Of a stretch of DNA of 64,000 bases, positions 42,262-55,324 are shown piece by piece. The translations under genes and the position numbers were made by a program. Within the stretch, counting starts at the first letter, position 1, and the number at the start of each line of letters is the position of its first letter. Under the pieces are notes generated by a model that saw only the letters and a list, made by a program, of their open reading frames with translations, had not been told where the DNA came from and did not search any database. The stretch is from a virus, in the IMG/VR virus record IMGVR_UViG_3300043256_000348, positions 28,948-92,947 of that record; one strand, written 5' to 3'.

Positions 42262-44062
42262 AGGCGTGCAGCAGCTCGCGGCGGCTCTCTCTTCATTCCG
42301 CGACAAGCCCGTCGAGTTCATGCGGCGGCTCTGGCCCGGGGTCAAGCTCTGGAAGAAGCAGCAGGAGATAGCCGAGTCGGTCGCCGGGAACTACGGGACG
42401 ATCGTGCATTCGGCGATCGAGACGGGCAAGGGCTTCATCGCGGCGCGGCTGATCCTGTGGTTCTACGCCACGCGGTTCCCCTGCAAGGTCGTGGCCACGT
42501 CGATCACGGCCCCGCAGCTACGGGACTCATTGTGGGGTGAGATCGACTCGGCACTTCGGCAACAGGCGGCCGGAGCGGACGGGGAGAAGATCACGCGGCC
42601 GGACGGCGAGCCCGTCACGGTCAAGGAACTGTTGGGCATCGACGTAATTCACATGGAGCTTCGGCGGCTCGACGAGAAGGGGCAGCCCCACGGCAACGAC
42701 TGGGTACGGCTTCGCGTAGCGAAAGACGTAGAGGGGATGCACGGGATACACCTTCCGCCCCTACCGGACGGCGGGCCGACAGTGTTTATCCTACTGGACG
42801 AGTGCTCCGGTATTTCCGACAAGTTCATCGACGCCCTGAAGGGGCAGGCCCACGTGATACTGGTACTCGGCAACCCGTTGAACTTGGCCGGGCAGTTCGC
42901 CCGGATGATCCGGGCGGGCAGTCAGTGCGACCCCTTGCATCCCGGTCGGTGGCGGTGGTACGTGATCCACATCGATGGCATCCGAACGCCGAACGTGGCC
43001 ACAGGGATGAAGTGGGATCGGCTGGGACGGAAGGGCCCGCTGCCGTCGCCGCCGATACCGGGGATCATGTCCTATCCGTCCTGGCTGGCATACAACGACG
43101 AGTGGGACGACTACAACATCACGACGCGGCTGCGGGGGCGGCTGCCGGAGGGTGACGAGACGCGGGTGGTGGTGCCGCGGGTCTGGCTTGACCGGTCGTT
43201 CCTGGCGTGGGACGAGATCGACCCGAAGTGGCGGCGGGAGAACTTGGCCCGGTGGATGGGCGTCGACGCCTCGCACGGCCGCGGCGATCTAGCCGTGTGG
43301 TGGGTGATCGACGCCCTGGGGACGGTGGACGTGCGGGCGATGGACCCGGAGGCTGCCAAGGACAAGGAATACGGCCAGCCGGATACGGTGAAGATGCTGG
43401 AACTGACGCAGGATTTAATGCAGGAGCACGGCATTTCGCCCGGCCGGGTGGCGGTGGACGCGGGCGGGGGCGGGCAGGACGCGATCGGCGACCCGCTGAG
43501 GCGGGAGGGCAAGGTCGTGCAGCTTGTGGACTTCGGGGCGGCCCCGTCGAAGAGCAGGAGGCGGCAGTACACCAAACGCCGATCGGAGCTGTACGGGCTG
43601 CTGGCCGAGGCGTGCAACCCGACGAAGTGGCGGCGGCTTGAAGGCGACGACGGGAAGCCCGGCCGCTGGGAGGTGTGCTTCGCCATGCCGGCGACGGGGC
43701 CGGTGGGGGAGCAGTGCCAGGCTCTGGCCGACGAGCTGCCGATGATCCCCAAGCTGTACGACCGCGAGGGGAAGATGTACCTGCCGCCGAAGTCCAAGCG
43801 GGCGCCGGAGTCGAAGGAGCAGACTTTGCGGGAGATCCTGGGGCACTCGCCGGACCGGTCGGACGCGGCCGCCCTGGCAGTCTGGGCGATGCGCGGCGGT
43901 ACTGGGACGCCCACCGTATCGCGGTCGCTGGTTCTAACAGAGGAGGAGCCCGGCGGCGATGAGCCGGAGCGGTCGGACCTTGTCGAGCGGATATTCGGAC
44001 CGGCGACGGAACCAGGCAGGGGCGACCGGCCGTGGACGCAGGACGACTTCTGGGGCGAGTGA
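42251..44062 (+). CDS. terL: Terminase large subunit
   Basis: Q..I; SAIETGK Walker A; LLDE; LGNP; MGVD; VDAGGGG; SPDRSDA. Confidence 0.9.
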   Translation: MATEGVQQLAAALSSFRDKPVEFMRRLWPGVKLWKKQQEIAESVAGNYGTIVHSAIETGKGFIAARLILWFYATRFPCKVVATSITAPQLRDSLWGEIDSALRQQAAGADGEKITRPDGEPVTVKELLGIDVIHMELRRLDEKGQPHGNDWVRLRVAKDVEGMHGIHLPPLPDGGPTVFILLDECSGISDKFIDALKGQAHVILVLGNPLNLAGQFARMIRAGSQCDPLHPGRWRWYVIHIDGIRTPNVATGMKWDRLGRKGPLPSPPIPGIMSYPSWLAYNDEWDDYNITTRLRGRLPEGDETRVVVPRVWLDRSFLAWDEIDPKWRRENLARWMGVDASHGRGDLAVWWVIDALGTVDVRAMDPEAAKDKEYGQPDTVKMLELTQDLMQEHGISPGRVAVDAGGGGQDAIGDPLRREGKVVQLVDFGAAPSKSRRRQYTKRRSELYGLLAEACNPTKWRRLEGDDGKPGRWEVCFAMPATGPVGEQCQALADELPMIPKLYDREGKMYLPPKSKRAPESKEQTLREILGHSPDRSDAAALAVWAMRGGTGTPTVSRSLVLTEEEPGGDEPERSDLVERIFGPATEPGRGDRPWTQDDFWGE

Positions 44063-44153
44063 GCACTTAATGAATTATTACGTTGTGTCGGAAGTTATTG
44101 CTGCGGCGGTACTTGCGGCATGGTTTCCCGGGGTGCACGAAAGGAGATTACGA

Positions 44154-44942
44154 ATGTATGAGCGATTTACTGATGAAGCGAGGGCTGTCATGCAGTCAGC
44201 TAAGAAGGAAGCACAGCGGTTCAATCATGAGTTCATCGGGACTGAGCACATCCTGCTGGGACTGATTACGGATAGCGACGGTCAGGCGGGCCAGGTGCTG
44301 AAAACCCTTGGGGTCGATCTACGAACAATCCGGCTGGAGACGGAGAAGCTGATACCGGCAGGCCCCTCTGTGATCCGCCTGCCAGAGCATGTACCGCTCA
44401 CGCCGCGGGCGAAGTCTGTCATCGCTATAGCAGGGGCAGCCTGTGACCATAATCGCCATCGCGTGAAAGCAGGGCATCTCTTAATAGGGCTGCTCGCCGA
44501 AACGGAGGGCGTGGCCGCCCAAGTGCTGATGAACCTGGGGCTGAAGCTCGAAGAGGTCCGCGAGGAAGTTTGGGCGATGGCTGACGTGCACGAAGGTACG
44601 GAGACAAATACATGGAACAAAGCTGAGGCATTAGTCGTTAGCAATTGCCAAGCAGCACGCCAGCGAGCCGAGCTAGGGGTTGTTCTCCACGATCGATGGC
44701 AGACAAGGGCAGGCTGGCCGTATGCGAACGCGGAGTCGAACTGTCTAGGGGCCATCGAACCAGGCGGGGTGGACGGTTTGGACCACTCTGGTTTCGTCGT
44801 GCTCGGCGCACTTCGGGCCCTGACGGTGAGCGAGGGCGGGGCCACGCTGGGTGAGTTGGCCGAGGTATTGGGGTACTTGCCCTTAGCGGTAAGGGGTGAA
44901 CTCCACTGCCTGGAACATCGCGGCTGGGTTGAACGAGCCTGA
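44154..44942 (+). CDS. Clp N-terminal repeat domain protein fused to a wHTH-like tail
   Basis: MYERFTD.AR.VM..A..EAQRFNHEFIGTEHILLGL...TPRAK...HLLIGLL.E.EGVAAQVL.NLG; no ATPase domain. Confidence 0.85.
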   Translation: MYERFTDEARAVMQSAKKEAQRFNHEFIGTEHILLGLITDSDGQAGQVLKTLGVDLRTIRLETEKLIPAGPSVIRLPEHVPLTPRAKSVIAIAGAACDHNRHRVKAGHLLIGLLAETEGVAAQVLMNLGLKLEEVREEVWAMADVHEGTETNTWNKAEALVVSNCQAARQRAELGVVLHDRWQTRAGWPYANAESNCLGAIEPGGVDGLDHSGFVVLGALRALTVSEGGATLGELAEVLGYLPLAVRGELHCLEHRGWVERA

Positions 44943-45430: not shown

Positions 45431-45625
45431 ATGCTCGAAGAAGTGGTTCCTGAACTGGGGAAGGTTTTGGACAGACTGGCAAACACAGATGAGGGTCTGG
45501 CACTAACAGACGACTTGGCGACCTTGCTCGCGAGACTTTATCAGTCGCTCGTAGGGAAAGGCATTCTTGCCGAACACGCTGCCATGATGGTGTCGGGCTT
45601 CGCACGTAGTACCAGTGGGAAGTGA
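45431..45625 (+). CDS. Small hypothetical protein
   Basis: GGAGG/GAGG SD. Confidence 0.5.
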   Translation: MLEEVVPELGKVLDRLANTDEGLALTDDLATLLARLYQSLVGKGILAEHAAMMVSGFARSTSGK

Positions 45626-45629
45626 GCCC

Positions 45630-47903
45630 GTGAGTGCAATAGCCGAGATGGCGATGGCGAGTCGGGAGCGGACCGAGGCGCTGGTCTCCCGGTACCGGGC
45701 GGCCGACCCGTCAAGGCAGTCGATGCTGGCCGGCGGCGGCGTGGTGCTCGGCGAGTCCCAGCTCTCGACTGGGCTGTTCGGCGAGGGGGCTGCCGATCGG
45801 GAGATGTACTCTCACTACCGCGGCTGGACCTACGCGGCGATCCGCCCGATAGCCCAGACGATCGCCGGGCAACCGGTGAGGGTTGGGCGGGAACTGGGCC
45901 CGGCGGAGAAGCCGCGGTCGGGCAGGCTGGCCACGAAGGGGTTGCTGCCGAGCTGGCTGAAGCAGACCGAGGTCGAGCAGTACGAGACGCACCCGCTGCT
46001 TGACGCGATTGCGCGCCCGAACCCGGTGATGACCTCGTGGCACCTGCTGTACATCCTGGCCGCGTCGCTGGAGATTGCCGGCGAGCACTTGTGGTGGGTA
46101 GTGGCCGGAAAAGAGGGTCCGGTGATCTGGCCGGTGCCGTCGCCGTGGTTCGAGCCTATTCACAGGGACGGCCAGCCGTTCGCGGCGTGGTCGATCACTC
46201 CCGGCGGGCAGGGCGAGCCGGAAGAGATTCCGAACAACGAAGTCGTCTACTTCCACTATCCTGACCTTGCGGACCCGCTCGGGTGCACCTCGCCGGCCAT
46301 GACGCAGTCGAGGGCGATGTCGGCGGATGAGGCGATGCAGGACGCGCAGGCCAACACGTTCCGCAACGCGCCGTTCCCGAAGCATGCCCTGGTCGTCGGC
46401 GACGTGACGGAGGACGGCGAGAACATGGGCCGCCCTATGCTGGAGCATTGGCAGCGGCAGCAGCTCTACACCGAATTCAAGAAGATGTATTCCCAGACGG
46501 CCCAGCACGGGCTGCCGCTCATCCTCGACAGGCTGATCCAGAACGTCATCCCGCTGTCGAACAAGCCGAACGAGATGGACTTCACCGGGAGCGGCAAGGT
46601 CACGAAGGCGCGCATCTTCCAGGGGCACGGCACGAACCCGGTGATCGCGGGCGAGGTCGAGGGGGTGAACCGGGCATCGAGCTACGTGGCCCGAAGGCAC
46701 TTCGCGGACCAAACGGTAAATCCGAAGATCGAGCTGATCAGCGAGGTGCTGACCCGGGGACTGGCCCCGATCGTGGCCGGCGAGGGCGAGCGGCTAAAGG
46801 TGTGGATCGAGTCGTACCAGCCTGACGACCGGGACGAGCGGAGGAGGGACCTCGACCTGGCGGCGAAGTACGGCTCGGTGACGAAGGATGAGGTCCGCTC
46901 GACCCTGACACATCTGGGGCTCGATCCGATGAACGGCGGGGATGAGGTGGCTGCCCCGCCTACTCTGATTCCGATGCTGTCGACGGGCCCGGCGGCCAAA
47001 CGGATCGAGGGGCTCCCGGACATCGCCGAAGTTCTCGACCGCGACGAGCGGGTGAAGGCGTGGCTAAAGGCGCACGGCCGGCACGAGGACCGGCTGCTGG
47101 ACGCGGTACATGCACTGTTCTTAGAGCAGCGGGACGCGGTGACGGCGAAGCTATACGAGGTGCTCGGCGAATTGGATAAGGCAGTACGGTCGCCGGAGGG
47201 GCTGAGCGAGCTGATCTTCAACCCGGACGAGTGGGAGGAGAAGTTGATCGACGCGAGCCGGCCGTACCTACAGCGGTCCGCTTACTTCGCCGCCGTGAGA
47301 ACGCTAAACGAGATCAAGAGCCGCAAGCAGGGGCCGGAGGAACTGATAGCACAGTTGACGCCGGCGGTTCGCGGGGCGATCGACGCCGAGTTGAACACGC
47401 TGCTGTCACGGCCCTACTGGCCCGACGTGCAGCAGACGACGCGGGCGGCGTTGTCTTCCACGCTATCGGAGGGCATGGCGAACGGCGAGTCGCTGCACCA
47501 CTTGGCGGCAAGGATAGGCGACGCCCCGACAGTGCCGGTGGTCGACCTGGGGGTGTTCCCGCCGGGCACGAAGTTCGGCAGCAACGCGGTGCTGGGGAGC
47601 GACGCGAGCCGGGCGAGGGCGCTGCTGATCGCAAGAACAGAAACAACTGGTGCCTTCGGGGCGGGTACGCAGGCTCAGTTGGAGGAGTTGCGGGCCGATG
47701 GGGTGGTAGGGGAGAAGGAACTGCTGGTGATAAACGACCAGTACCTCCGCGACACCCACCGAGCCGTGGCAGACGTGGGGCCGATCCCGATCAACGAGGA
47801 TTACGACTTCGGCGGCTACAAGGCACCCTACCCGGGGCACCACTCGCTGCCGGCGAAGGAAAGAGCCCACTGCCGGTGCGATTCGGTCGCCGTAGTGGAG
47901 TAA
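45630..47903 (+). CDS. HK97-type portal fused to a Mu gpF-like minor head domain
   Basis: YAAIRPIAQTIA, HPLL....PNP, SP, FRN..P, EMDF, T.DEVR; C-terminal RALLIARTET...R.TH...HCRC. Confidence 0.9.
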   Translation: MSAIAEMAMASRERTEALVSRYRAADPSRQSMLAGGGVVLGESQLSTGLFGEGAADREMYSHYRGWTYAAIRPIAQTIAGQPVRVGRELGPAEKPRSGRLATKGLLPSWLKQTEVEQYETHPLLDAIARPNPVMTSWHLLYILAASLEIAGEHLWWVVAGKEGPVIWPVPSPWFEPIHRDGQPFAAWSITPGGQGEPEEIPNNEVVYFHYPDLADPLGCTSPAMTQSRAMSADEAMQDAQANTFRNAPFPKHALVVGDVTEDGENMGRPMLEHWQRQQLYTEFKKMYSQTAQHGLPLILDRLIQNVIPLSNKPNEMDFTGSGKVTKARIFQGHGTNPVIAGEVEGVNRASSYVARRHFADQTVNPKIELISEVLTRGLAPIVAGEGERLKVWIESYQPDDRDERRRDLDLAAKYGSVTKDEVRSTLTHLGLDPMNGGDEVAAPPTLIPMLSTGPAAKRIEGLPDIAEVLDRDERVKAWLKAHGRHEDRLLDAVHALFLEQRDAVTAKLYEVLGELDKAVRSPEGLSELIFNPDEWEEKLIDASRPYLQRSAYFAAVRTLNEIKSRKQGPEELIAQLTPAVRGAIDAELNTLLSRPYWPDVQQTTRAALSSTLSEGMANGESLHHLAARIGDAPTVPVVDLGVFPPGTKFGSNAVLGSDASRARALLIARTETTGAFGAGTQAQLEELRADGVVGEKELLVINDQYLRDTHRAVADVGPIPINEDYDFGGYKAPYPGHHSLPAKERAHCRCDSVAVVE

Positions 47904-48719: not shown

Positions 48720-48750
48720 CTTGAATCACAATCGGGTATCGGAACAACCG

Positions 48751-48787
48751 GGCCCGCGACCTTTCGAGGTTGCGGGCCTTTTTCTTT
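48751..48787 (+). terminator. Intrinsic terminator / attenuator upstream of the protease gene
   Basis: ggcccgcgacct-ttcg-aggttgcgggcc followed by TTTTTCTTT. Confidence 0.75.
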
Positions 48788-48801
48788 GCCGGGAGCGAGA
48801 C

Positions 48802-51800
48802 ATGGCGACAGTCGAAACGGTGGACGCGGCTGCCCCGATCCTGGACAGCCTACGGAGCCGGAGGCCGGACGGGCGGTGGGGTATCGGCACGGCGAAGAGC
48901 TACCTTGATGCGACGCCACCGAACCTGTTCGACGTTTCACTCGATGAGTGGCAGGCGGTCATGGAGAAGGCCGCCGACACCCTCACTTACTGCGAGCGGG
49001 AAGCGACTATCGAGGCGCTGTCGTGGAGTGTGCTAGGGGAGGAGGGCCGCGACCGGCTCGGCCGGAATATGCCGTTGCTGCCGGTCAAGCGTGCGAAGAA
49101 GCCGGCGAACATCGAGGGGTTCGTCCTCGCGTTCGACTACACGCTGACGACGATTGACGAGGACCGGGACTTCGACGTGCTGGAGCCGAAGGGGGCGACG
49201 GTCGATATGCTCGGGCCGTTGCTGTTCAACCACGTCACGTTGCAGCCGATCGGCAAGCCGCTGAAGATCCTCAAGCAGAACAGCAAGCGGCTCGCAGAGC
49301 AGTCGGCCATTATGGACTTCCCCTTCGGCCGGGACGTGGCCCAGATGATCGAGTTCCAGGTGCTCCGGCGAATGTCGCACGGCTTCCTGCCGACGAAGTA
49401 CGAAGAGCGCACGCCGAAGAAGGCCGACGACGAAGACGAGGCCGTGGGCTGGCACATCATGGAGTACGAGATCATGGAGCGGTCCGTGGTGTCGGTGGCC
49501 AGCAACCGCGGTGCGATCATCGAGGCGTGGAACCTGCTGGGGGAGAAGGGCTTCCACGACGACAGAGTGAAGGGCTGGCTGAAGAGCGTCTATGAGGCGA
49601 GGCCCGTGATCGGCAGAGGCTTCGCACCCGACCGTTGCCTGATCTGTCACAACACTTCGGCCAGGCAGGCTCCGCACCATCAATGCAACTGCTGCGACTC
49701 TCCCGCCCCCGACCCGTCCGATTGCGACCAGACGCCGCCCGCGTTTCGGTGGCCAGCAACCGCGGTGCGATCATCTGATGTGGTTGACCCGGCGAAAGAA
49801 GCAGAGCCTCAGTCACTTCAGTATCCGGCAGGCAAGTCAAGTAAGAGGCTGACTGAAGACGGCGTGGAGACGTGCGAACTGTGCGATGCCCCGGCAGTGA
49901 CAACCACAAACATGCGTCACCAGTGGTGCGAAGACCATACGCCGGAAGTATGCAAAAGAAAAACCGCATTGATCCCCTTCAATAAATCAGCCGGCTCGAC
50001 GTTTGACGTTTGGCGGGAGCACCTGGAGCCGGCCAAGCTGGAGTACGACTGGGCGAGCCGCTACATCGGCTGCCAGGTCAAGCACCTGTTCTGGGTGCAC
50101 ACCAAGGTTCCGAAGGCGCGGATCGGCTCGTGGCTGACGGGGCTGCGTGAGGTGCTGGCCGACTACAGCGTCGAGGACACCCGCCACATTTCAAGCGGCG
50201 GCGAGGAGCTGCCGCCGAAGTATGAGATCATCCAGCTCACCCCAGACAAGGCCGATGACTTCCTGGTTCAAGGCTTGCAGTTCCGCTGCGGGCCGGACCG
50301 CAAGTTCGTACTCGGCTTCGAGCCGTACTACGGCATGCTGGAGGTGATATTCTACACGTCCGACAACGAGGCGGCCAAGCAGTTCGCACGCGAGGTGATC
50401 GGCAAGACGTGGGAGTGGTCGCGGGTGAACAACTTTCTCAAGGGGCAGGCGTTCAGCTTGACAGGTGGCTTCCTACCGAAGACCGGCGAGCGATGGGACG
50501 GGCTGTTCCTTCCCGATCGTAACAAGCGGCCGGTCATGCGCGCCGTGGAGGCGGTCAACGAGAAGCGGGCGGCCGCGTCCAACCGCGGCATGATCCTGAT
50601 GGGCCCGCCGGGAACCGGCAAGACGCTGTCGGCTCGCATCGTCCGGAACCTCGCCGACGCGACGTTCATCTGGGTGGCGGCGAGGGACTTCTGGAACGTT
50701 GGGGCGTTCGGAGCCTTCACTCACTCGTTCGATCTGGCCCGGGAGCTGGCCCCCTCGGTCATCTGCTTCGAGGATGTGGACAACTGGATCAATGGGGGCG
50801 GGACGGAGGAGTTGCTGAAGAGCGAGATGGACGGCATGAACCGGTCATCGGGCGTGCTCACGCTGCTAACGACGAACTACCCGGAGCTGATCCCGGACGC
50901 GCTGATCGACCGCCCCGGGCGGTTCCACGACGTGTTGCTGTTCGACCTGCCGGACGGGAAAGTCAGGGGCGAGATGCTCGCCGCGTGGCTGCCGGAAGCG
51001 CCGGGGAAGGATCGGAAGAGGGCGGTTGGGAAGACGGACGGCTACAGCGGGGCCCACATCTTCGAGCTGGCCGAGTACGCCAAGACGCTGCGAGACGAGG
51101 ACTCGCTTTCGATCGGCGAGGCGTTGCTGAAAGCCATCGACAAGATCGAAGAGCAACGGGAGCTAATCACGGGCGTGCAGCTTGAGGGCAGCCGCTACAA
51201 GCCGAACCGCTCAGGTTTCCCGGGGCAATTCGGCGCGTTGATACCGGCCAAGGTGTTCGCTTTCGGAAACAAGACAGAGAAGACGGTCCCCGGCAACCCG
51301 TCCGGCGGATCGGGCGACGGCACCGAGGGCACGTGGAGCAAGCTGAAGCTGAGCGACTTCACCGACAAAGACTGGGGCGACCTGTCGGCGGCCGAGAAGG
51401 GCAATATTAAGAAATACTTTGCCTGGCACCCGGGCACCGTCGAGACGTTCGCCGACCTGAAGCTGGGGCACCACTTTGCGTCCGGTGACGACGCGGGCAA
51501 GGCGAGCCTGAACGGGGTGCGGAACGCGCTGGCCAGGGCGAACCAGGTGGACGGGATCGGCGACGAACTGGAACGGGTGATGACGCATCTACGGGCACAC
51601 CTGCCGGAGCGGTCGGTCGTTATTGCTCATCTAGCTGTCGGTCTCGACGACGATGCGAAGCGGTGGCTCGCTGCAATAGAAAAGCTCGAAGAGGCGTGGG
51701 CTCAAGCGACGGGTAAGCGAAGCGGGGACGAAAAGGAAACACTATGCAAGCAAACGCTCGCATGGCTGGCGGCTGCGGCGACGGAGGAGGAGTTGAGGCA

Positions 51801-51876
51801 GGCCAAGGCAGTGATCGACGCGAGGTTGCGGGAGAAACGCAACCGGAAGCTGAGGAAGCTGTTTCGCCTGAGATGA
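48802..51876 (+). CDS. HK97-type prohead protease fused to an AAA+ ATPase and an extra C-terminal domain
   Basis: DRDFDVL.PKG, LLFNH...PIGK, MSHGF, ERSVVSVASN..A; then GPPGTGKT, ICFEDVD, TTN.PE...ALIDRPGRF, GYSGA. Confidence 0.85.
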   Translation: MATVETVDAAAPILDSLRSRRPDGRWGIGTAKSYLDATPPNLFDVSLDEWQAVMEKAADTLTYCEREATIEALSWSVLGEEGRDRLGRNMPLLPVKRAKKPANIEGFVLAFDYTLTTIDEDRDFDVLEPKGATVDMLGPLLFNHVTLQPIGKPLKILKQNSKRLAEQSAIMDFPFGRDVAQMIEFQVLRRMSHGFLPTKYEERTPKKADDEDEAVGWHIMEYEIMERSVVSVASNRGAIIEAWNLLGEKGFHDDRVKGWLKSVYEARPVIGRGFAPDRCLICHNTSARQAPHHQCNCCDSPAPDPSDCDQTPPAFRWPATAVRSSDVVDPAKEAEPQSLQYPAGKSSKRLTEDGVETCELCDAPAVTTTNMRHQWCEDHTPEVCKRKTALIPFNKSAGSTFDVWREHLEPAKLEYDWASRYIGCQVKHLFWVHTKVPKARIGSWLTGLREVLADYSVEDTRHISSGGEELPPKYEIIQLTPDKADDFLVQGLQFRCGPDRKFVLGFEPYYGMLEVIFYTSDNEAAKQFAREVIGKTWEWSRVNNFLKGQAFSLTGGFLPKTGERWDGLFLPDRNKRPVMRAVEAVNEKRAAASNRGMILMGPPGTGKTLSARIVRNLADATFIWVAARDFWNVGAFGAFTHSFDLARELAPSVICFEDVDNWINGGGTEELLKSEMDGMNRSSGVLTLLTTNYPELIPDALIDRPGRFHDVLLFDLPDGKVRGEMLAAWLPEAPGKDRKRAVGKTDGYSGAHIFELAEYAKTLRDEDSLSIGEALLKAIDKIEEQRELITGVQLEGSRYKPNRSGFPGQFGALIPAKVFAFGNKTEKTVPGNPSGGSGDGTEGTWSKLKLSDFTDKDWGDLSAAEKGNIKKYFAWHPGTVETFADLKLGHHFASGDDAGKASLNGVRNALARANQVDGIGDELERVMTHLRAHLPERSVVIAHLAVGLDDDAKRWLAAIEKLEEAWAQATGKRSGDEKETLCKQTLAWLAAAATEEELRQAKAVIDARLREKRNRKLRKLFRLR

Positions 51877-51924: not shown

Positions 51925-53640
51925 ATGGAACTGACAGATGCGTTAAAGAAGTGGGCCGTCGAGAACCTCGACATGGCCGCCGACGCCTCCGATGACGAGT
52001 ACAAGGCGGCCATCACTGGGGCGATCTCCGCCGGCACGCTGACGGCCAGGAAGTACGCCGAGCTGATGGCGGAGGACCCGGACGTGAAAGAGGAGCTGGG
52101 CAAGCTGTTGGCTCAGGCCAATGCCCCGGTGATCGCGGGGCTGGGCAAGGTGGCCGACGCGGTCGGCAGCCTGGCTGAGAAGATCCAGGCAGGACCGCCG
52201 AAGACGACCCTGGAATCGACCGTCGAGACGAGTATGGCGAGCGCCGGCGAAGGTGCCGACGACATCGACGGCAAGATCGAGCGGCAAGTCGAGAAGATGC
52301 TTGCCGAGAAAAACCAGAACGGCAACGGCGAGCGGGCCGACTTCGCGGCCGCGTTCATGGCCAAGGCCGCGATGGGCGGAAGCAACCCGCGGGTGAAGGC
52401 CGAGGTCGATAAGTACTCGACCCAGCGCAAGTCGCTGGTCTGCCCGGAGTTCATCGGTGCGGGCAAAAGGCACCCGCTGGCGGGCGAGCCGGCCGTGCGG
52501 TTCAACCACGCGATGGAGGCCCCGAGCGAGGCGGACTTCGCGATCTGCGGGGCGTTCGCCAAGTTCCAGTTGCTGCGCGGCACCGTCGGCCCCACGGCCT
52601 GCGAGGCCCTGCTGACGGAGCACGAGCGGAAGCTGGTCCTCCACGCGCTGCACGAGATGAGGTGGACCGGCGTGGTCGGGGTGATGGGCGGGCAGGAGGC
52701 CCGGATCGACCTGAGCGGTACGGAGGTCGACGACCGGAAGCTGACTCCGCCGGAACGCAAGGCGATCCTCGACGACACGACCAGCGGCGGCACCTACGCG
52801 GTGCCCCGCGTGTTCGACGAGGCGATCTCGGCCGCCCCGATCCTCTTCGGCGAGCTGGCCCCGCTGGTCGACATGCAGAACCTCGTGAGGGGTGCCGTGG
52901 TCGACGGCAGCACGTGGACCGACCCGAGCTTCATCTCCCAGACCGAGGGCTCGGCGTTCAGCCTGGTCAGCACGGCCAGCCTGATCGGAAACCTCGACAC
53001 GTCGATCTTCAACACCGTGGCCGGGATCGAGCTGGGCCTGGACTGGGAGAGCGACACGCCGATCAACTTCGGCACGTACATCGTGCAGAGGCTCGGCATG
53101 AAGCTGAAGGAGTGGCTGGACGAGCAGATCGCCATCGGCGACGGCACGACGGAGCCGACCGGGATCTTCACGGCTTCCGGCGTCAACACGTCCAACTCCA
53201 GCAACAGCACCGGCGGCCCGTTTACGCTCGGCGACTTCGAGAAGCTGGCGTTCGGCCTGACAAAGGCGATGCGTGCCAGCAACCCGAGGTCGAACGTCTA
53301 CGTGACGTCGGACTACATGTACAGGCAGGCCCGAGGCGTGCCTGTACATACGACCGACGCCCGGCGGCTGCTTGGCATGGACCACTCGGCGTACACGATC
53401 CTGGAGCACCCGTGCAAGATCCAGGACTCGATCGCCAATGGGTCCATCGCGTTCGCGAACCTGGCCTACTACCGGATGTACCGCCGGCTGGGCATCCAGA
53501 TCCGCAACGTGATCGAGGGCCAGACCCTCGCGCTGAAAAACACGCGGCTAATCATCGTCCGCGCGCGGTACGGTGGCCAGCCGACGCTGGGAGTCTCGAT
53601 CAACAAAATGACCGACGGCCCGACCAGCTACGGGAATTAG
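51925..53640 (+). CDS. Major capsid protein (HK97 fold) with N-terminal scaffold region
   Basis: SGGTYAVP...I; EG; LDEQIAIGDGTTEPTGI; strong codon bias; AAGGAG SD. Confidence 0.92.
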   Translation: MELTDALKKWAVENLDMAADASDDEYKAAITGAISAGTLTARKYAELMAEDPDVKEELGKLLAQANAPVIAGLGKVADAVGSLAEKIQAGPPKTTLESTVETSMASAGEGADDIDGKIERQVEKMLAEKNQNGNGERADFAAAFMAKAAMGGSNPRVKAEVDKYSTQRKSLVCPEFIGAGKRHPLAGEPAVRFNHAMEAPSEADFAICGAFAKFQLLRGTVGPTACEALLTEHERKLVLHALHEMRWTGVVGVMGGQEARIDLSGTEVDDRKLTPPERKAILDDTTSGGTYAVPRVFDEAISAAPILFGELAPLVDMQNLVRGAVVDGSTWTDPSFISQTEGSAFSLVSTASLIGNLDTSIFNTVAGIELGLDWESDTPINFGTYIVQRLGMKLKEWLDEQIAIGDGTTEPTGIFTASGVNTSNSSNSTGGPFTLGDFEKLAFGLTKAMRASNPRSNVYVTSDYMYRQARGVPVHTTDARRLLGMDHSAYTILEHPCKIQDSIANGSIAFANLAYYRMYRRLGIQIRNVIEGQTLALKNTRLIIVRARYGGQPTLGVSINKMTDGPTSYGN

Positions 53641-54313: not shown

Positions 54314-55324
54314 GTGCGAATAGCGATCGCCTACCCGCCGCGACCGGCGTGGCCGAAGATGGAGTGGGTTTCCAAGGCATTTTCAGCCATCGGGCACGAT
54401 GTCTGCCAGGCCCACAGCATTAACGAGCTGGCCGAGGCAGACGAGGACTGCGATCTGGTTGTCTTCGAGCAGCGGTGCGCTGGGCTGAACTACGCCGACG
54501 TTGCCGAGGTGGCGTCAGGCAGGCGTACGACCTGGGTGCAGTGGGTATTTGATTTGATGGCCACCGAGCCCGGCTTGCAGCTTGGCGAGCAGCCGAACCT
54601 CGGCCACCGGACCACCTCGGCCACCTGGGAGGCGACCGACACGCTCCGGATGATGCGGCTGATGGACCTGGTGTTCGTCAAGGAGCGGGGGCTGCTGGCC
54701 GAGTACGCCAATCTCGGAGTAGAGGCTCGGTGGCTCGATCAGGCTTGTCCCTCGTGGATGGGCGAGTGCCGGCACAGCTCATCGCCCGAGTTCGACGTGT
54801 GCCTCTTCGCCAACTTCACGACAGCGGCCAGGCAGAGGCGGGTGGACGTGCAGAGTCTTCTCCGATGCCGCCGCAGCATCGTGTGGGCCGGGCACCCGGG
54901 CGGCGACGCGCCGCCTGGGGTCCGGGCCATTGGGTTCGTGCCCGTGGAGCGACTGCCGGAGCTGGCGTCCCGGGCGGCGGTGACGCTCTGCGTCGACCAG
55001 CGCCATGATCTCGATGGATATGTGAGCGACCGACTCTGGCTCGCCCTCGGCATGGGGGCGTGCGTGGTTCGCCGGGCGTCGCCCGGGCTGCCGGGTTCCC
55101 CTGGCGAGTATTACGGCGTCTACGATGACGGCGATTGCCTGAGTGACGTAGTCGGTGCCCTCTTGGCCTGTGTAGACCACCGGCAATTGGTTGGGCGAGG
55201 TGCCCGCCAGTACGTTATGGCCAATCACACCTACGAGCACCGCTGCCAAGAGCTACTACGGGAGGTTGAGAAATGCAGACACCAGACAAGCGGAAGTGCC
55301 GCCGCTGCCACGGCAGGGGCATGA
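54314..55324 (+). CDS. Glycosyltransferase (CgeB-like) in the structural cluster
   Basis: WLDQAC, FDVCLF, YVSDRLWLALGMG, ARQYVMANHTYEHRCQELL. Confidence 0.82.
   Translation: MRIAIAYPPRPAWPKMEWVSKAFSAIGHDVCQAHSINELAEADEDCDLVVFEQRCAGLNYADVAEVASGRRTTWVQWVFDLMATEPGLQLGEQPNLGHRTTSATWEATDTLRMMRLMDLVFVKERGLLAEYANLGVEARWLDQACPSWMGECRHSSSPEFDVCLFANFTTAARQRRVDVQSLLRCRRSIVWAGHPGGDAPPGVRAIGFVPVERLPELASRAAVTLCVDQRHDLDGYVSDRLWLALGMGACVVRRASPGLPGSPGEYYGVYDDGDCLSDVVGALLACVDHRQLVGRGARQYVMANHTYEHRCQELLREVEKCRHQTSGSAAAATAGA

Follow-up and report, generated by a model that had tools for sequence, protein, structure and literature searches.

Genomic context and organization of the polyprotein gene

The window, a stretch of 64,000 nucleotides analyzed here as a whole, belongs to a virus record in IMG/VR that is 92,947 bp long, has direct terminal repeats and is estimated to be 100% complete. 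It contains a head module in which the gene for a portal protein, a prohead protease polyprotein and the major capsid protein (MCP) lie in this order (Table 1). The polyprotein is read from a single open frame that runs from an ATG at 48802 to a stop codon at 51874-51876 and is preceded by a ribosome-binding site (GGGAGCGAG), and the MCP gene starts at 51925, in agreement with the original prediction that all parts of the protein lie in one ORF of about 1024 codons directly before the MCP. No convincing internal translation start with a ribosome-binding site was found before the middle or C-terminal domain.

Using genomic contexts of relatives taken from IMG/VR scans, we found the gene in the same place, between portal and HK97-fold MCP, in the window and about 45 related loci, and the order portal-MuF, polyprotein, MCP was kept around family members in all loci viewed. 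The identical 1024-residue protein is recorded on three contigs of the collection. Scanning 185,579 species genomes for the codon pattern of DRPGRFHD returned, among the matches listed, a single genuine relative, the rest being chance; this relative (L185) is a contig of 4 kb from the bin of a Saccharibacteria MAG and gives no host assignment.

Table 1. Features of the head module and domains of the polyprotein (positions in the window).
Feature	Position	Strand	Details
Portal protein fused to MuF-like domain	45615..47903	+	upstream member of conserved head module
Terminator-like hairpin	48750..48779	+	13-bp stem, 9 G-C pairs, T-run; ends 22 nt 5' of start codon
Prohead protease polyprotein with inserted ATPase (entire ORF)	48802..51876	+	1024 aa plus stop
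N-terminal domain, residues 1-95	48802..49086	+	own HMM; collinear with L218
S78/HK97-type prohead serine protease domain, residues ~96-275	49087..49626	+	PF04586, PHROG 80
Cys/His-rich linker, hypervariable, residues 288-392	49663..49977	+	CxxC pairs
Accessory cassette, residues ~343-827 (~485 aa)	49828..51282	+	distal linker, middle and AAA domains; absent from L218
Middle domain, residues 393-588: N-terminal domain of YjoB/Bcs1-type ATPase (predicted)	49978..50565	+	AF2 pLDDT 88
Classical-clade AAA domain, residues 589-805	50566..51216	+	Walker A K607, Walker B E657-D658, sensor-1 N692, R704, R707
C-terminal 'KLGHH' domain, conserved, residues 840-945	51319..51636	+	four invariant histidines
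Helical C-terminal tail with basic end, residues 946-1024	51637..51873	+	common to nearest relatives
Major capsid protein, 571 aa	51925..53640	+	conserved ~288-aa N-terminal extension, then HK97 fold

The gene encodes a head-maturation protease

Judged from its sequence, the gene is the phage's head-maturation protease of the S78/HK97 type. Pfam detected Peptidase_S78 (PF04586) at residues 103-241 with 29.1 bits against a cut-off of 21, which bears out the HK97-type protease predicted at about 49100-49560, and the ORF matched PHROG 80, 'head maturation protease', with an E-value of 1.3e-9. Among family sequences, H144 is kept in 230, S192 in 232 and E226 in 234 of 235, the remainder being gaps; from family motifs, we take these residues to be the catalytic residues of HK97 gp4. 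With gp4-type proteases (MEROPS S78, PF04586, TIGR01543) the phage protein thus shares the PF04586 match of its N-terminal third and the His, Ser and Glu positions, as well as a location between portal and MCP and an MCP with its own N-terminal scaffolding extension. By contrast, its ORF is four times as long, its TIGR01543 score (26 bits) falls under the equivalog cut-off of 59, and it has an extra N-terminal domain, a zinc-ribbon linker, an inserted ATPase and a histidine-rich C-terminal domain. A PDB sequence search with the protease part found no solved homologue.

The Cys/His-rich linker, the middle domain and the 'KLGHH' C-terminal domain that had been predicted are all present, and both the middle and the 'KLGHH' domain are also conserved in relatives. 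Relatives that lack the ATPase also have the 'KLGHH' domain and the N-terminal domain that lies 5' of the protease; some family members carry the 'KLGHH' domain ahead of the ATPase. The CxxC pairs of the linker probably form zinc ribbons, and zinc-ribbon Pfam matches occur at this position in relatives. Relative to L218, a closely related locus described below, the linker has two small insertions, and it contains a 33-nt direct repeat. Pfam searches with separate segments (N-terminus, linker, middle domain, C-terminus and the MCP N-terminal extension) returned nothing credible, and the C-terminal part matched only low-scoring small viral clusters in the ESM Atlas.

The middle and AAA domains resemble YjoB and Bcs1

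An AAA domain was detected by Pfam (PF00004, residues 597-715, 62.7 bits) and groups by sequence with the classical clade, alongside FtsH, PAN and Cdc48. The prediction of an intact AAA domain holds: GPPGTGKT begins at residue 601 (nucleotide 50602), and FEDVD, TTN and DRPGRF are all there. K607 and D658 are invariant in the family (253 of 253), and E657, N692 and both arginines of the second region of homology, R704 and R707, are each kept in 251 of 253; in the pore-loop-1 region, F630 (214/253) is followed by Y, W or H at 631, and G634 is kept in 230 of 253. The 'ED' that replaces 'DE' in Walker B is exceptional and common to YjoB and Bcs1, both of which are active ATPases (PMC9565160).

An AF2 model of residues 385-815 (pLDDT 89) retrieved Bacillus subtilis YjoB (7w42) as the top Foldseek match (E 2e-18, 425 columns over both domains), followed by six Bcs1 entries aligned over about 390 columns, while Rpt, p97 and FtsH ranked lower and matched the AAA domain only. 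VIA-align also placed YjoB first, with 336 residues aligned over model residues 29-400 and a Z of 19.6 that lies within 1 of AAA-only matches. The middle domain, modeled as an antiparallel beta-sheet packed with helices, gave weak matches by itself (Bcs1 8t14, E 4e-3; mBcs1, Z 5.1); Foldseek returned nothing below E 1e-3 for this domain, and YjoB was not among the matches listed. The best VIA-align Z for the domain alone was 7.0, to unrelated KA1-, AMPK- and Aha1-like folds, and these searches were uninformative by themselves. Pfam BCS1_N (PF08740) did not match residues 385-590 even at E 5, and a PDB sequence search with the middle domain gave no match at E 10; the N-terminal domain of YjoB itself has no significant sequence similarity to that of Bcs1 (PMC9565160). 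By protein language model, the domain fell close to BCS1_N clusters, which is no more than a lead; 264 matches to the domain were found among 1.84 billion cluster representatives. Profile ranking of the core against the PDB was unusable for weighing Bcs1 or YjoB because double-ring Cdc48/p97 proteins dominate it by adding up two domains. On the structural models, the middle and AAA domains together probably form a YjoB/Bcs1-type ATPase module.

With YjoB (PDB 7W42/7W46), which is an active ATPase, a hexamer with an internal chamber and a substrate-specific chaperone (PMC9565160), the phage module has in common the 'ED' motif of Walker B, a classical AAA fold and a predicted N-terminal alpha/beta domain of much the same size, but sequence identity is only about 18% and the likeness of the N-domain is weak by itself. 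YjoB is moreover a stand-alone cytoplasmic protein of Bacillales, whereas the phage ATPase sits within a protease. Mitochondrial Bcs1 (PDB 6UKS, 6UKP, 8T14) provided the second-best two-domain structural matches and has the same 'ED'; it is a heptameric translocase that moves one folded substrate across a membrane, whereas the phage protein lacks an N-terminal membrane anchor and has in front of its ATPase a soluble protease and a hydrophilic linker rich in Cys, His, Pro and Asp. Iyer et al. (2021; PMC7824862) assigned stand-alone AAA proteins of jumbo phages to BCS1 and suggested that they bring folded proteins into the head; these orthologues, which we compared by description only, are separate genes. 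A distant relative is also encoded by the cultured Stenotrophomonas phage ANB28, whose 481-aa stand-alone protein carries FCEDID (hhalign probability 98.8), is not fused to a protease and is encoded among replication genes, outside the head module.

The fusion recurs in a family of uncultured phages

A domain-architecture search revealed that the fusion recurs family-wide. The family counts 260 or more sequence clusters from uncultured phages, and protease and ATPase are found in one chain in 235 of 258 sequences (91%), contrary to the possibility, raised with the original prediction, that homologs always encode the AAA domain separately. The protease precedes the ATPase in most members and follows it in 10; the orders ATPase-protease and, rarely, ATPase-protease-MCP both occur, and a few members of 440-480 aa seem to stand alone. 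Identity across the family is about 45-60% for the AAA domain and 33-40% for the MCP, and the sequence comparisons place both enzymes under purifying selection. The nearly constant membership in a polyprotein suggests that co-assembly with the head matters. We found no record of a protease-ATPase fusion among 50,697 deposited phage genomes and no published description of one.

That the fusion is a misassembly or a missed stop had likewise been raised. The sequence comes from a metagenome assembly and its linker contains a direct repeat, which would suit an assembly chimera, an overlooked stop or frameshift, or a pseudogene in decay. However, no stop codon interrupts the frame of 3,072 nt (genome G+C about 62%), the catalytic motifs are intact, and the same architecture is seen in hundreds of independent sequences, besides the identical protein on the three contigs, which makes an artefact scarcely credible.

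The ATPase module is an accessory cassette

The protease gene of L218, a locus whose MCP C-domain is 86% identical to that of the window, is collinear with residues 1-342 and 828-1009 of the polyprotein and lacks residues 343-827. The missing part falls in the variable region that separates the protease's catalytic domain from its conserved C-terminal domain. A second, independent pair of loci (L249 and L236) displays the same with/without pattern, and the ATPase module is present in only 6 of 51 related head loci. In six relatives that are 98-100% complete, no copy of the module was found anywhere in the genome, while three positive controls were detected. On the MCP tree, at least 8 gains or losses are needed for 10 carriers among 61 rows (mean with shuffled labels, 9.4), and head-gene recombination could account for part of this scattered distribution. 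The module is therefore accessory to the head-assembly machinery rather than part of its core, being missing both from close relatives and from complete genomes of related phages. Our findings go beyond the first reading of this gene in that the module is an accessory cassette and YjoB/Bcs1-like. The idea that the site is a polymorphic enzyme slot was discarded, as relatives without the ATPase hold only zinc ribbons, a TUDOR-like domain or a coil-like domain there.

We also searched for partners of the module. Every MCP of the lineage has a partly conserved N-terminal extension of 243-359 aa, which is of similar length in carriers and non-carriers, and no separate scaffold gene was seen between protease and MCP. 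The MCP carries a conserved K-A-(I/L/V)-L-D-D...T-S-G-G junction just before the HK97 fold, and no motif matching this junction was found at the cassette borders. With the ORFs of the window genome as queries, no gene co-varied with the module between three carrier genomes and six complete non-carriers. A 132-aa candidate (G000:3131-3526) was dismissed because it occurs in non-carriers too, with slightly weaker E-values, and a neighboring Clp_N protein was rejected as a conserved partner because it is absent from the records of five relatives. Such a lack of co-variation inside the phage is expected if the target of the module lies outside the phage's own head proteins.

Possible roles of the ATPase

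Three ideas accompanied the original prediction: ATP-assisted scaffold removal, capsid chaperoning, and an ATPase packaged in the head and freed by autoproteolysis for injection. The last fits the new evidence best. In the mechanism that we propose, a cassette of about 485 residues, consisting of a zinc-ribbon segment and a complete YjoB/Bcs1-type ATPase with a putative ring-forming N-terminal domain of its own and a classical AAA domain, has been inserted into the variable region of the protease. Prohead proteases of the S78/HK97 kind enter the procapsid and cleave themselves and their neighbors, and we infer from this entry and self-cleavage that the ATPase would ride in as a passenger and be freed there. 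By analogy with YjoB and Bcs1, the freed ATPase may form a hexameric or heptameric ring around an internal chamber, which would bind and release folded or partly folded proteins under the control of ATP. The ATPase would remain in the head, leave it with the DNA and act on proteins of the next host cell.

We consider it probable that the ATPase is encapsidated at all, and put rather less than even odds on ejected cargo being its main role. To the complete reading, in which a widespread group of uncultured phages has virions equipped with an ATP-driven chamber chaperone of YjoB/Bcs1 type that is loaded as part of the protease, cut free and delivered with the DNA to the next host, whose proteins it would remodel or neutralize, we assign a probability of roughly 0.35. 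The T4 internal proteins and Alt, which bear a capsid-targeting sequence, are processed by the protease, packaged in the head and ejected. Precedents for proteins that are processed, packaged and ejected exist in T4 and SPN3US (PMC10052503, PMC5694885). The logic proposed here is that of the T4 and SPN3US proteins and of MuF-toxin fusions, a passenger borne by a head protein and trimmed by the prohead protease; the putative carrier would differ in being the protease itself, and no targeting signal or cleavage motif was identifiable. Several points speak against cargo. The module is well conserved, whereas counter-defence cargo typically evolves fast; to exit via the tail, a ring enzyme would need to be unfolded or monomeric and then reassemble at low copy number; and the rare ATPase-protease-MCP polyproteins, which would put an ATPase on every capsid subunit, are hard to reconcile with the stoichiometry of a cargo.

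Nearly as likely as cargo, though on the unlikely side taken by itself, is a facultative maturation helper in the procapsid. In this case the ring would use ATP to hold, loosen or present the MCP N-terminal scaffolding domain of about 290 aa or other internal proteins, the protease would then clear the head faster or more reliably, and the ring itself would be degraded afterwards. Such a role would agree with the constant presence of the module in a head polyprotein, adjoining or fused to the protease and sometimes to the MCP, with the long MCP extension throughout the lineage, where no separate scaffold gene was seen between protease and MCP, and with selection on both active sites. YjoB, moreover, acts as a holding chaperone for specific substrates, and the clients of Bcs1 are folded proteins (PMC9565160), and a head-assembly role has been proposed for the stand-alone phage BCS1 orthologues (Iyer et al.; PMC7824862). 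Against it, relatives with the 86%-identical MCP and the same protease, and six complete related genomes, manage without the module, the MCP extension is equally long with or without it, and no partner gene co-varies. As far as is known, phage-encoded assembly chaperones are also patchily distributed, so that the patchiness of the module is compatible with an assembly role. Capsid chaperoning survives as a facultative function only, not as a required one, since the module is dispensable in relatives.

Two further roles appear improbable. The ATPase could act in the cytoplasm of the producing cell, before or outside capsid assembly, with the fusion serving only co-expression and dosage; it would then time protease activity by oligomerizing the protease, or act late in infection by remodeling a host protein. 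The ANB28 relative with its 'ED' among replication genes and the few stand-alone members would suit such a role, and a ring would gather six or seven protease domains. Co-expression, however, leaves unexplained why 91% of the family embed the ATPase in a polyprotein and why the C-terminal domain of the protease is invariably spared, and clustering of proteases before assembly risks premature cleavage. More improbable still is an ATP-dependent protease akin to Lon or FtsH, in which the AAA ring would pull substrates through its pore, unfold them and hand them on to the protease domains of the same chain. Like those two enzymes, the phage protein combines ATPase and peptidase in one polypeptide, its AAA domain is of the classical clade, and aromatic residues are kept in the pore-loop-1 region. 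Yet in structure the module comes closest to YjoB and Bcs1, which are of the chamber type, rather than to unfoldases that thread; the peptidase has another fold, that of an assemblin-like S78 enzyme and not of a chambered peptidase; and the ATPase is a dispensable insert. A fixed, stacked arrangement of the two is also hard to square with the variable domain order and the long, hypervariable linker. Of the three original ideas, scaffold removal by an unfoldase fits least, the module being of the YjoB/Bcs1 chamber type rather than a Lon/FtsH/Clp threader and absent from complete relative genomes.

Implications for phage head maturation

The fusion is common in metagenomic phages, yet close relatives do without it, and the ATPase is thus an optional passenger of the head-assembly machinery. 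To our knowledge, procapsid assembly and proteolytic maturation in tailed phages have been described as ATP-free, with DNA packaging as the only step that draws on ATP. In at least 260 clusters of uncultured phages, the head-maturation protease contains a complete ATPase whose type is rare and poorly understood. Because the module is accessory, the earlier idea that capsid assembly involves an energy-using step has to be narrowed. An ATPase at work in the procapsid would make such a step an optional part of capsid maturation. If the ATPase is cargo instead, these phages would inject a protein-remodeling machine, a new class of injected phage enzyme, and the prohead protease would have a new use as a carrier. 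The natural pairs of alleles with and without the module, such as those of the window phage and L218, make its role directly testable. In either case a second biological setting would be added for YjoB/Bcs1-type ATPases, about whose substrates little is known outside mitochondria.

The protease and the ATPase share one reading frame within a head gene module

The record that holds the window is a 92,947-bp IMG/VR virus, bearing direct terminal repeats and estimated to be 100% complete, and the window is its final 64 kb. On the + strand, a frame open from 48721 to 51876 encodes the polyprotein, which likely starts at the ATG at 48802, preceded by a GGGAGCGAG ribosome-binding site, giving a product of 1024 aa. 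The original prediction had described this ORF as an HK97-type protease joined, through a Cys/His-rich linker and a middle domain, to an intact AAA ATPase and a C-terminal 'KLGHH' domain. All of its motifs were found where it had placed them, and the PHROGs and NCBIfam annotations are consistent with the Pfam matches.

Features of the polyprotein gene and its surroundings (nucleotide positions are those of the window; residues are those of the polyprotein unless stated otherwise; conservation is given as family sequences with the residue, those not counted being mostly alignment gaps)
Feature	Position	Details
Stand-alone Clp_N protein, upstream of portal gene	43959-44942	Double Clp_N repeat, PF02861, E 7e-28; HTH-like tail
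Portal and MuF-like domain, single ORF	45615-47903	762 aa; PF04860 and PF04233
Strong terminator-like hairpin	48750-48779	13-bp stem then T-run; ends 22 nt before polyprotein start codon
Peptidase_S78 (PF04586)	Residues 103-241	Pfam
AAA (PF00004)	Residues 597-715	Pfam
33-nt direct repeat	49489-49521 and 49743-49775	32/33 bases identical; 254 nt apart; different reading frames
'KLGHH' domain	51319-51636	Residues 840-945
MCP	51925-53640	571 aa; HK97 fold confined to MCP residues 289-562
MCP N-terminal extension	51925-52788	~290 aa; MCP residues 1-288
Glycosyltransferase-like gene, two genes past MCP	54314-55324	PF13524
Protease H144		230/235
Protease S192		232/235
Protease E226		234/235
Walker A K607		253/253
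Walker B E657, D658		251/253, 253/253
Sensor-1 N692		251/253
Arginines R704, R707		251/253

Several neighboring features deserve mention. The portal-MuF fusion, or adjacency of the two, recurs in related loci, and several related head modules have the glycosyltransferase-like gene at the same position (loci L002, L056, L064, and L079, 37-71% identical). The hairpin sits within the expected late head operon and might act as an attenuator or separate the transcript of the portal-MuF gene from that of the protease-MCP genes. The Clp_N protein was not found in the records of five ATPase-carrying relatives and is thus not a conserved partner of the ATPase. The delta domain of HK97 is ~100 aa, and the N-terminal extension of the window MCP is almost three times that length, with blocks conserved in at least 200 IMG/VR relatives. 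Maturation cleavage may occur at a conserved K-A-(I/L/V)-L-D-D..T-S-G-G junction that immediately precedes the HK97 fold.

The fusion recurs across a large family

At least 360 relatives of the polyprotein came up in a word-indexed search across 5.8 billion proteins, and many of them carry PF04586 and PF00004 together. With the middle domain alone as query, an exhaustive HMMER search of 1.84 billion cluster representatives matched 264 proteins, nearly all 650-1500 aa long with the middle domain beginning 200-500 residues in. Family-derived HMMs, one per segment, were run on 258 family sequences, of which 216 were database proteins and 42 were IMG/VR ORFs, and placed protease and ATPase in the same chain in 235. 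The prospect that homologues might always encode the ATPase separately, raised with the original prediction, is thus not borne out, and the same recurrence makes an artefactual fusion very unlikely. The commonest domain order is N-domain, protease, middle domain, and AAA; the ATPase precedes the protease in 10 sequences, and a few chains run on into the capsid protein (e.g., P0116, with AAA at 229-346, S78 at 506-611, and Phage_capsid at 813-1106). Gene order in the IMG/VR loci of the family is always portal, MuF, polyprotein, and MCP. Two family proteins, P0077 and P0103, have an intein (PF14890) within the AAA domain near the P-loop, where ~300-390 residues split the AAA match.

None of 50,697 deposited phage genome records contained the fusion, the only matches there being at the level of the AAA domain (~30% identity), and full-text literature searches found no description of a prohead or maturation protease fused to AAA, Bcs1, or YjoB. 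Judged by the conservation of their key residues, both the protease and the ATPase look active.

The ATPase resembles YjoB and Bcs1

The sequence of the AAA domain places it in the classical clade (top PDB and NCBIfam matches: Cdc48 D2, PAN, and FtsH), and that of the middle domain matched nothing in Pfam or PDB. Modelled alone, the middle domain was predicted with a pLDDT of 88 as an antiparallel sheet packed with helices, and its fold matches were weak and generic (Bcs1 at a Foldseek E of 4e-3 and a VIA-align Z of 5.1). A model of both domains together (residues 385-815; pLDDT 89, pTM 0.83) gave Bacillus subtilis YjoB (7w42/7w46) as the top Foldseek match, with E of 2e-18 to 3e-17 over ~425 columns, the whole chain, followed by six Bcs1 structures (E about 3e-14 to 2.5e-13, ~390 columns). 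Lower-ranked matches, to proteasomal Rpt subunits, p97, and FtsH, were mostly confined to the AAA domain. VIA-align also placed YjoB first, with a Z of 19.6 that is within 1 of AAA-only matches, over 336 residues (model residues 29-400).

The Walker B motif of the family is E-D instead of the canonical D-E. YjoB and Bcs1, both active ATPases, have E-D as an exceptional trait (PMC9565160), so that the invariant E-D of the phage family looks like a derived character shared with them. YjoB forms a hexamer and Bcs1 a heptamer, each ring enclosing an internal chamber; YjoB is a substrate-specific holding chaperone, whereas Bcs1 is a folded-protein translocase (PMC9565160). Unlike Bcs1, the phage module lacks a membrane anchor and does not match the BCS1_N profile. 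On its modelled fold and sequence, the module is best filed as YjoB/Bcs1-type and as an orthologue of neither. Stand-alone BCS1 orthologues occur in jumbo phages, where they have been proposed to move folded proteins into the head (Iyer et al., PMC7824862). A distant relative of the module, a 481-aa 'hypothetical protein' of Stenotrophomonas phage ANB28 (PQ434692.1; L214:2548-3990; hhalign probability 98.8), has the same E-D Walker B, but in contrast to the fusion it stands alone, adjoining a helicase gene outside the head module.

The ATPase module is an accessory cassette

Using nine aligned family MCPs as query, we collected 204 IMG/VR relatives of the capsid protein; every one of them shares its long N-terminal extension. 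Among the best 80 of the 204, 51 head loci extended 4.2 kb or more upstream of the HK97 domain; a related protease gene was present in 51/51, the middle and AAA domains in only six. The closest non-carrier, L218, has an MCP C-domain 86% identical to that of the window, and its protease ORF, 497 aa in length, aligns collinearly with polyprotein residues 1-342 (72% identity) and 828-1009 (64%), lacking residues 343-827, i.e., the distal linker, middle domain, and AAA domain. An unrelated pair shows the same pattern: carrier L249 (978 aa) and non-carrier L236 (422 aa) share the protease domain (58% identity) and the C-terminal segment, with ~535 versus ~70 residues between them.

The 10 carriers among 61 MCP C-domains, placed on a maximum-likelihood tree, require at least eight gains or losses, at least six of them forced by well-supported branches, compared with a mean of 9.4 for shuffled carrier labels; four carrier rows were added deliberately, which inflates the carrier share but not the scatter. 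No module homologue was found anywhere in six related genomes (98-100% complete, 85-100 kb, four with terminal repeats), while the same query matched three carrier records as positive controls. The module is nearly always within the head polyprotein, and the C-terminal domain of the protease is always kept. The gene is thus a protease with an inserted, intact, and selectively maintained YjoB/Bcs1-type ATPase, and the module is an accessory cassette, dispensable for the lineage. The cassette boundary, the paired alleles, the scatter, and the absence from complete relatives shift the weight away from an energy-using step of capsid assembly and toward a module that the protease carries as an optional passenger.

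The linker and the 'KLGHH' domain belong to the protease lineage

ATPase-less proteases have 130-450 residues beyond the catalytic domain, including zinc ribbons and small domains; no other enzyme was found in this region. Since zinc ribbons occur there, as they do in the linkers of family members P0004 and P0034, the Cys/His linker is an old, hypervariable feature that comes with the protease lineage, separate from the ATPase. In alignment with L218, the second copy of the 33-nt repeat lies in a 42-nt (14-codon) linker insertion, indicating that protease coding sequence served as template for it and is read there in another frame. Just upstream, a second insertion (~70-80 nt) contributes a CxxC...CxCC cluster.

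The 'KLGHH' domain, which has no Pfam match, contains four invariant histidines in an HH...H..LH pattern (based on 10 sequences). Proteases contain the domain whether or not they carry the ATPase; it precedes the ATPase in several family sequences and is duplicated in locus L227. It might bind metal or serve in capsid targeting.

A possible packaged enzyme

HK97-type and herpesvirus-type maturation proteases co-assemble within the procapsid, then cleave the capsid protein and themselves. Lying between the catalytic domain and the C-terminus, the ATPase would enter the procapsid together with the protease and, once there, could be released by cleavage. By analogy with these proteases, the ATPase is probably encapsidated.

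Its function is a more tentative matter. A facultative role in maturation would suit a chaperone such as YjoB and an MCP with a large N-terminal scaffolding domain, but capsid proteins are near-identical between carriers and non-carriers, the MCP extension has the same length with or without the module, and no phage gene co-varying with it was found when the ORFs of the window genome were compared across three carrier and six complete non-carrier genomes. We rank such a helper second, somewhat less likely than the reading preferred below. Far less probable still is an ATPase that threads substrates in the manner of Lon or FtsH, which is hard to square with its YjoB/Bcs1 kinship, a domain order that varies, and a hypervariable linker.

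Our preferred reading, to which we assign a probability of roughly 40%, is that the ATPase is packaged and ejected to work in the next host. The high conservation of the module, the need for the ring to re-form after ejection, and the existence, though rare, of ATPase-protease-MCP polyproteins all weigh against ejection; the accessory, scattered distribution, the lack of co-variation inside the phage, and precedents among T4 and SPN3US head proteins argue for it. The ANB28 protein, coming from a cultured phage, may offer a culturable entry point for the biochemistry.
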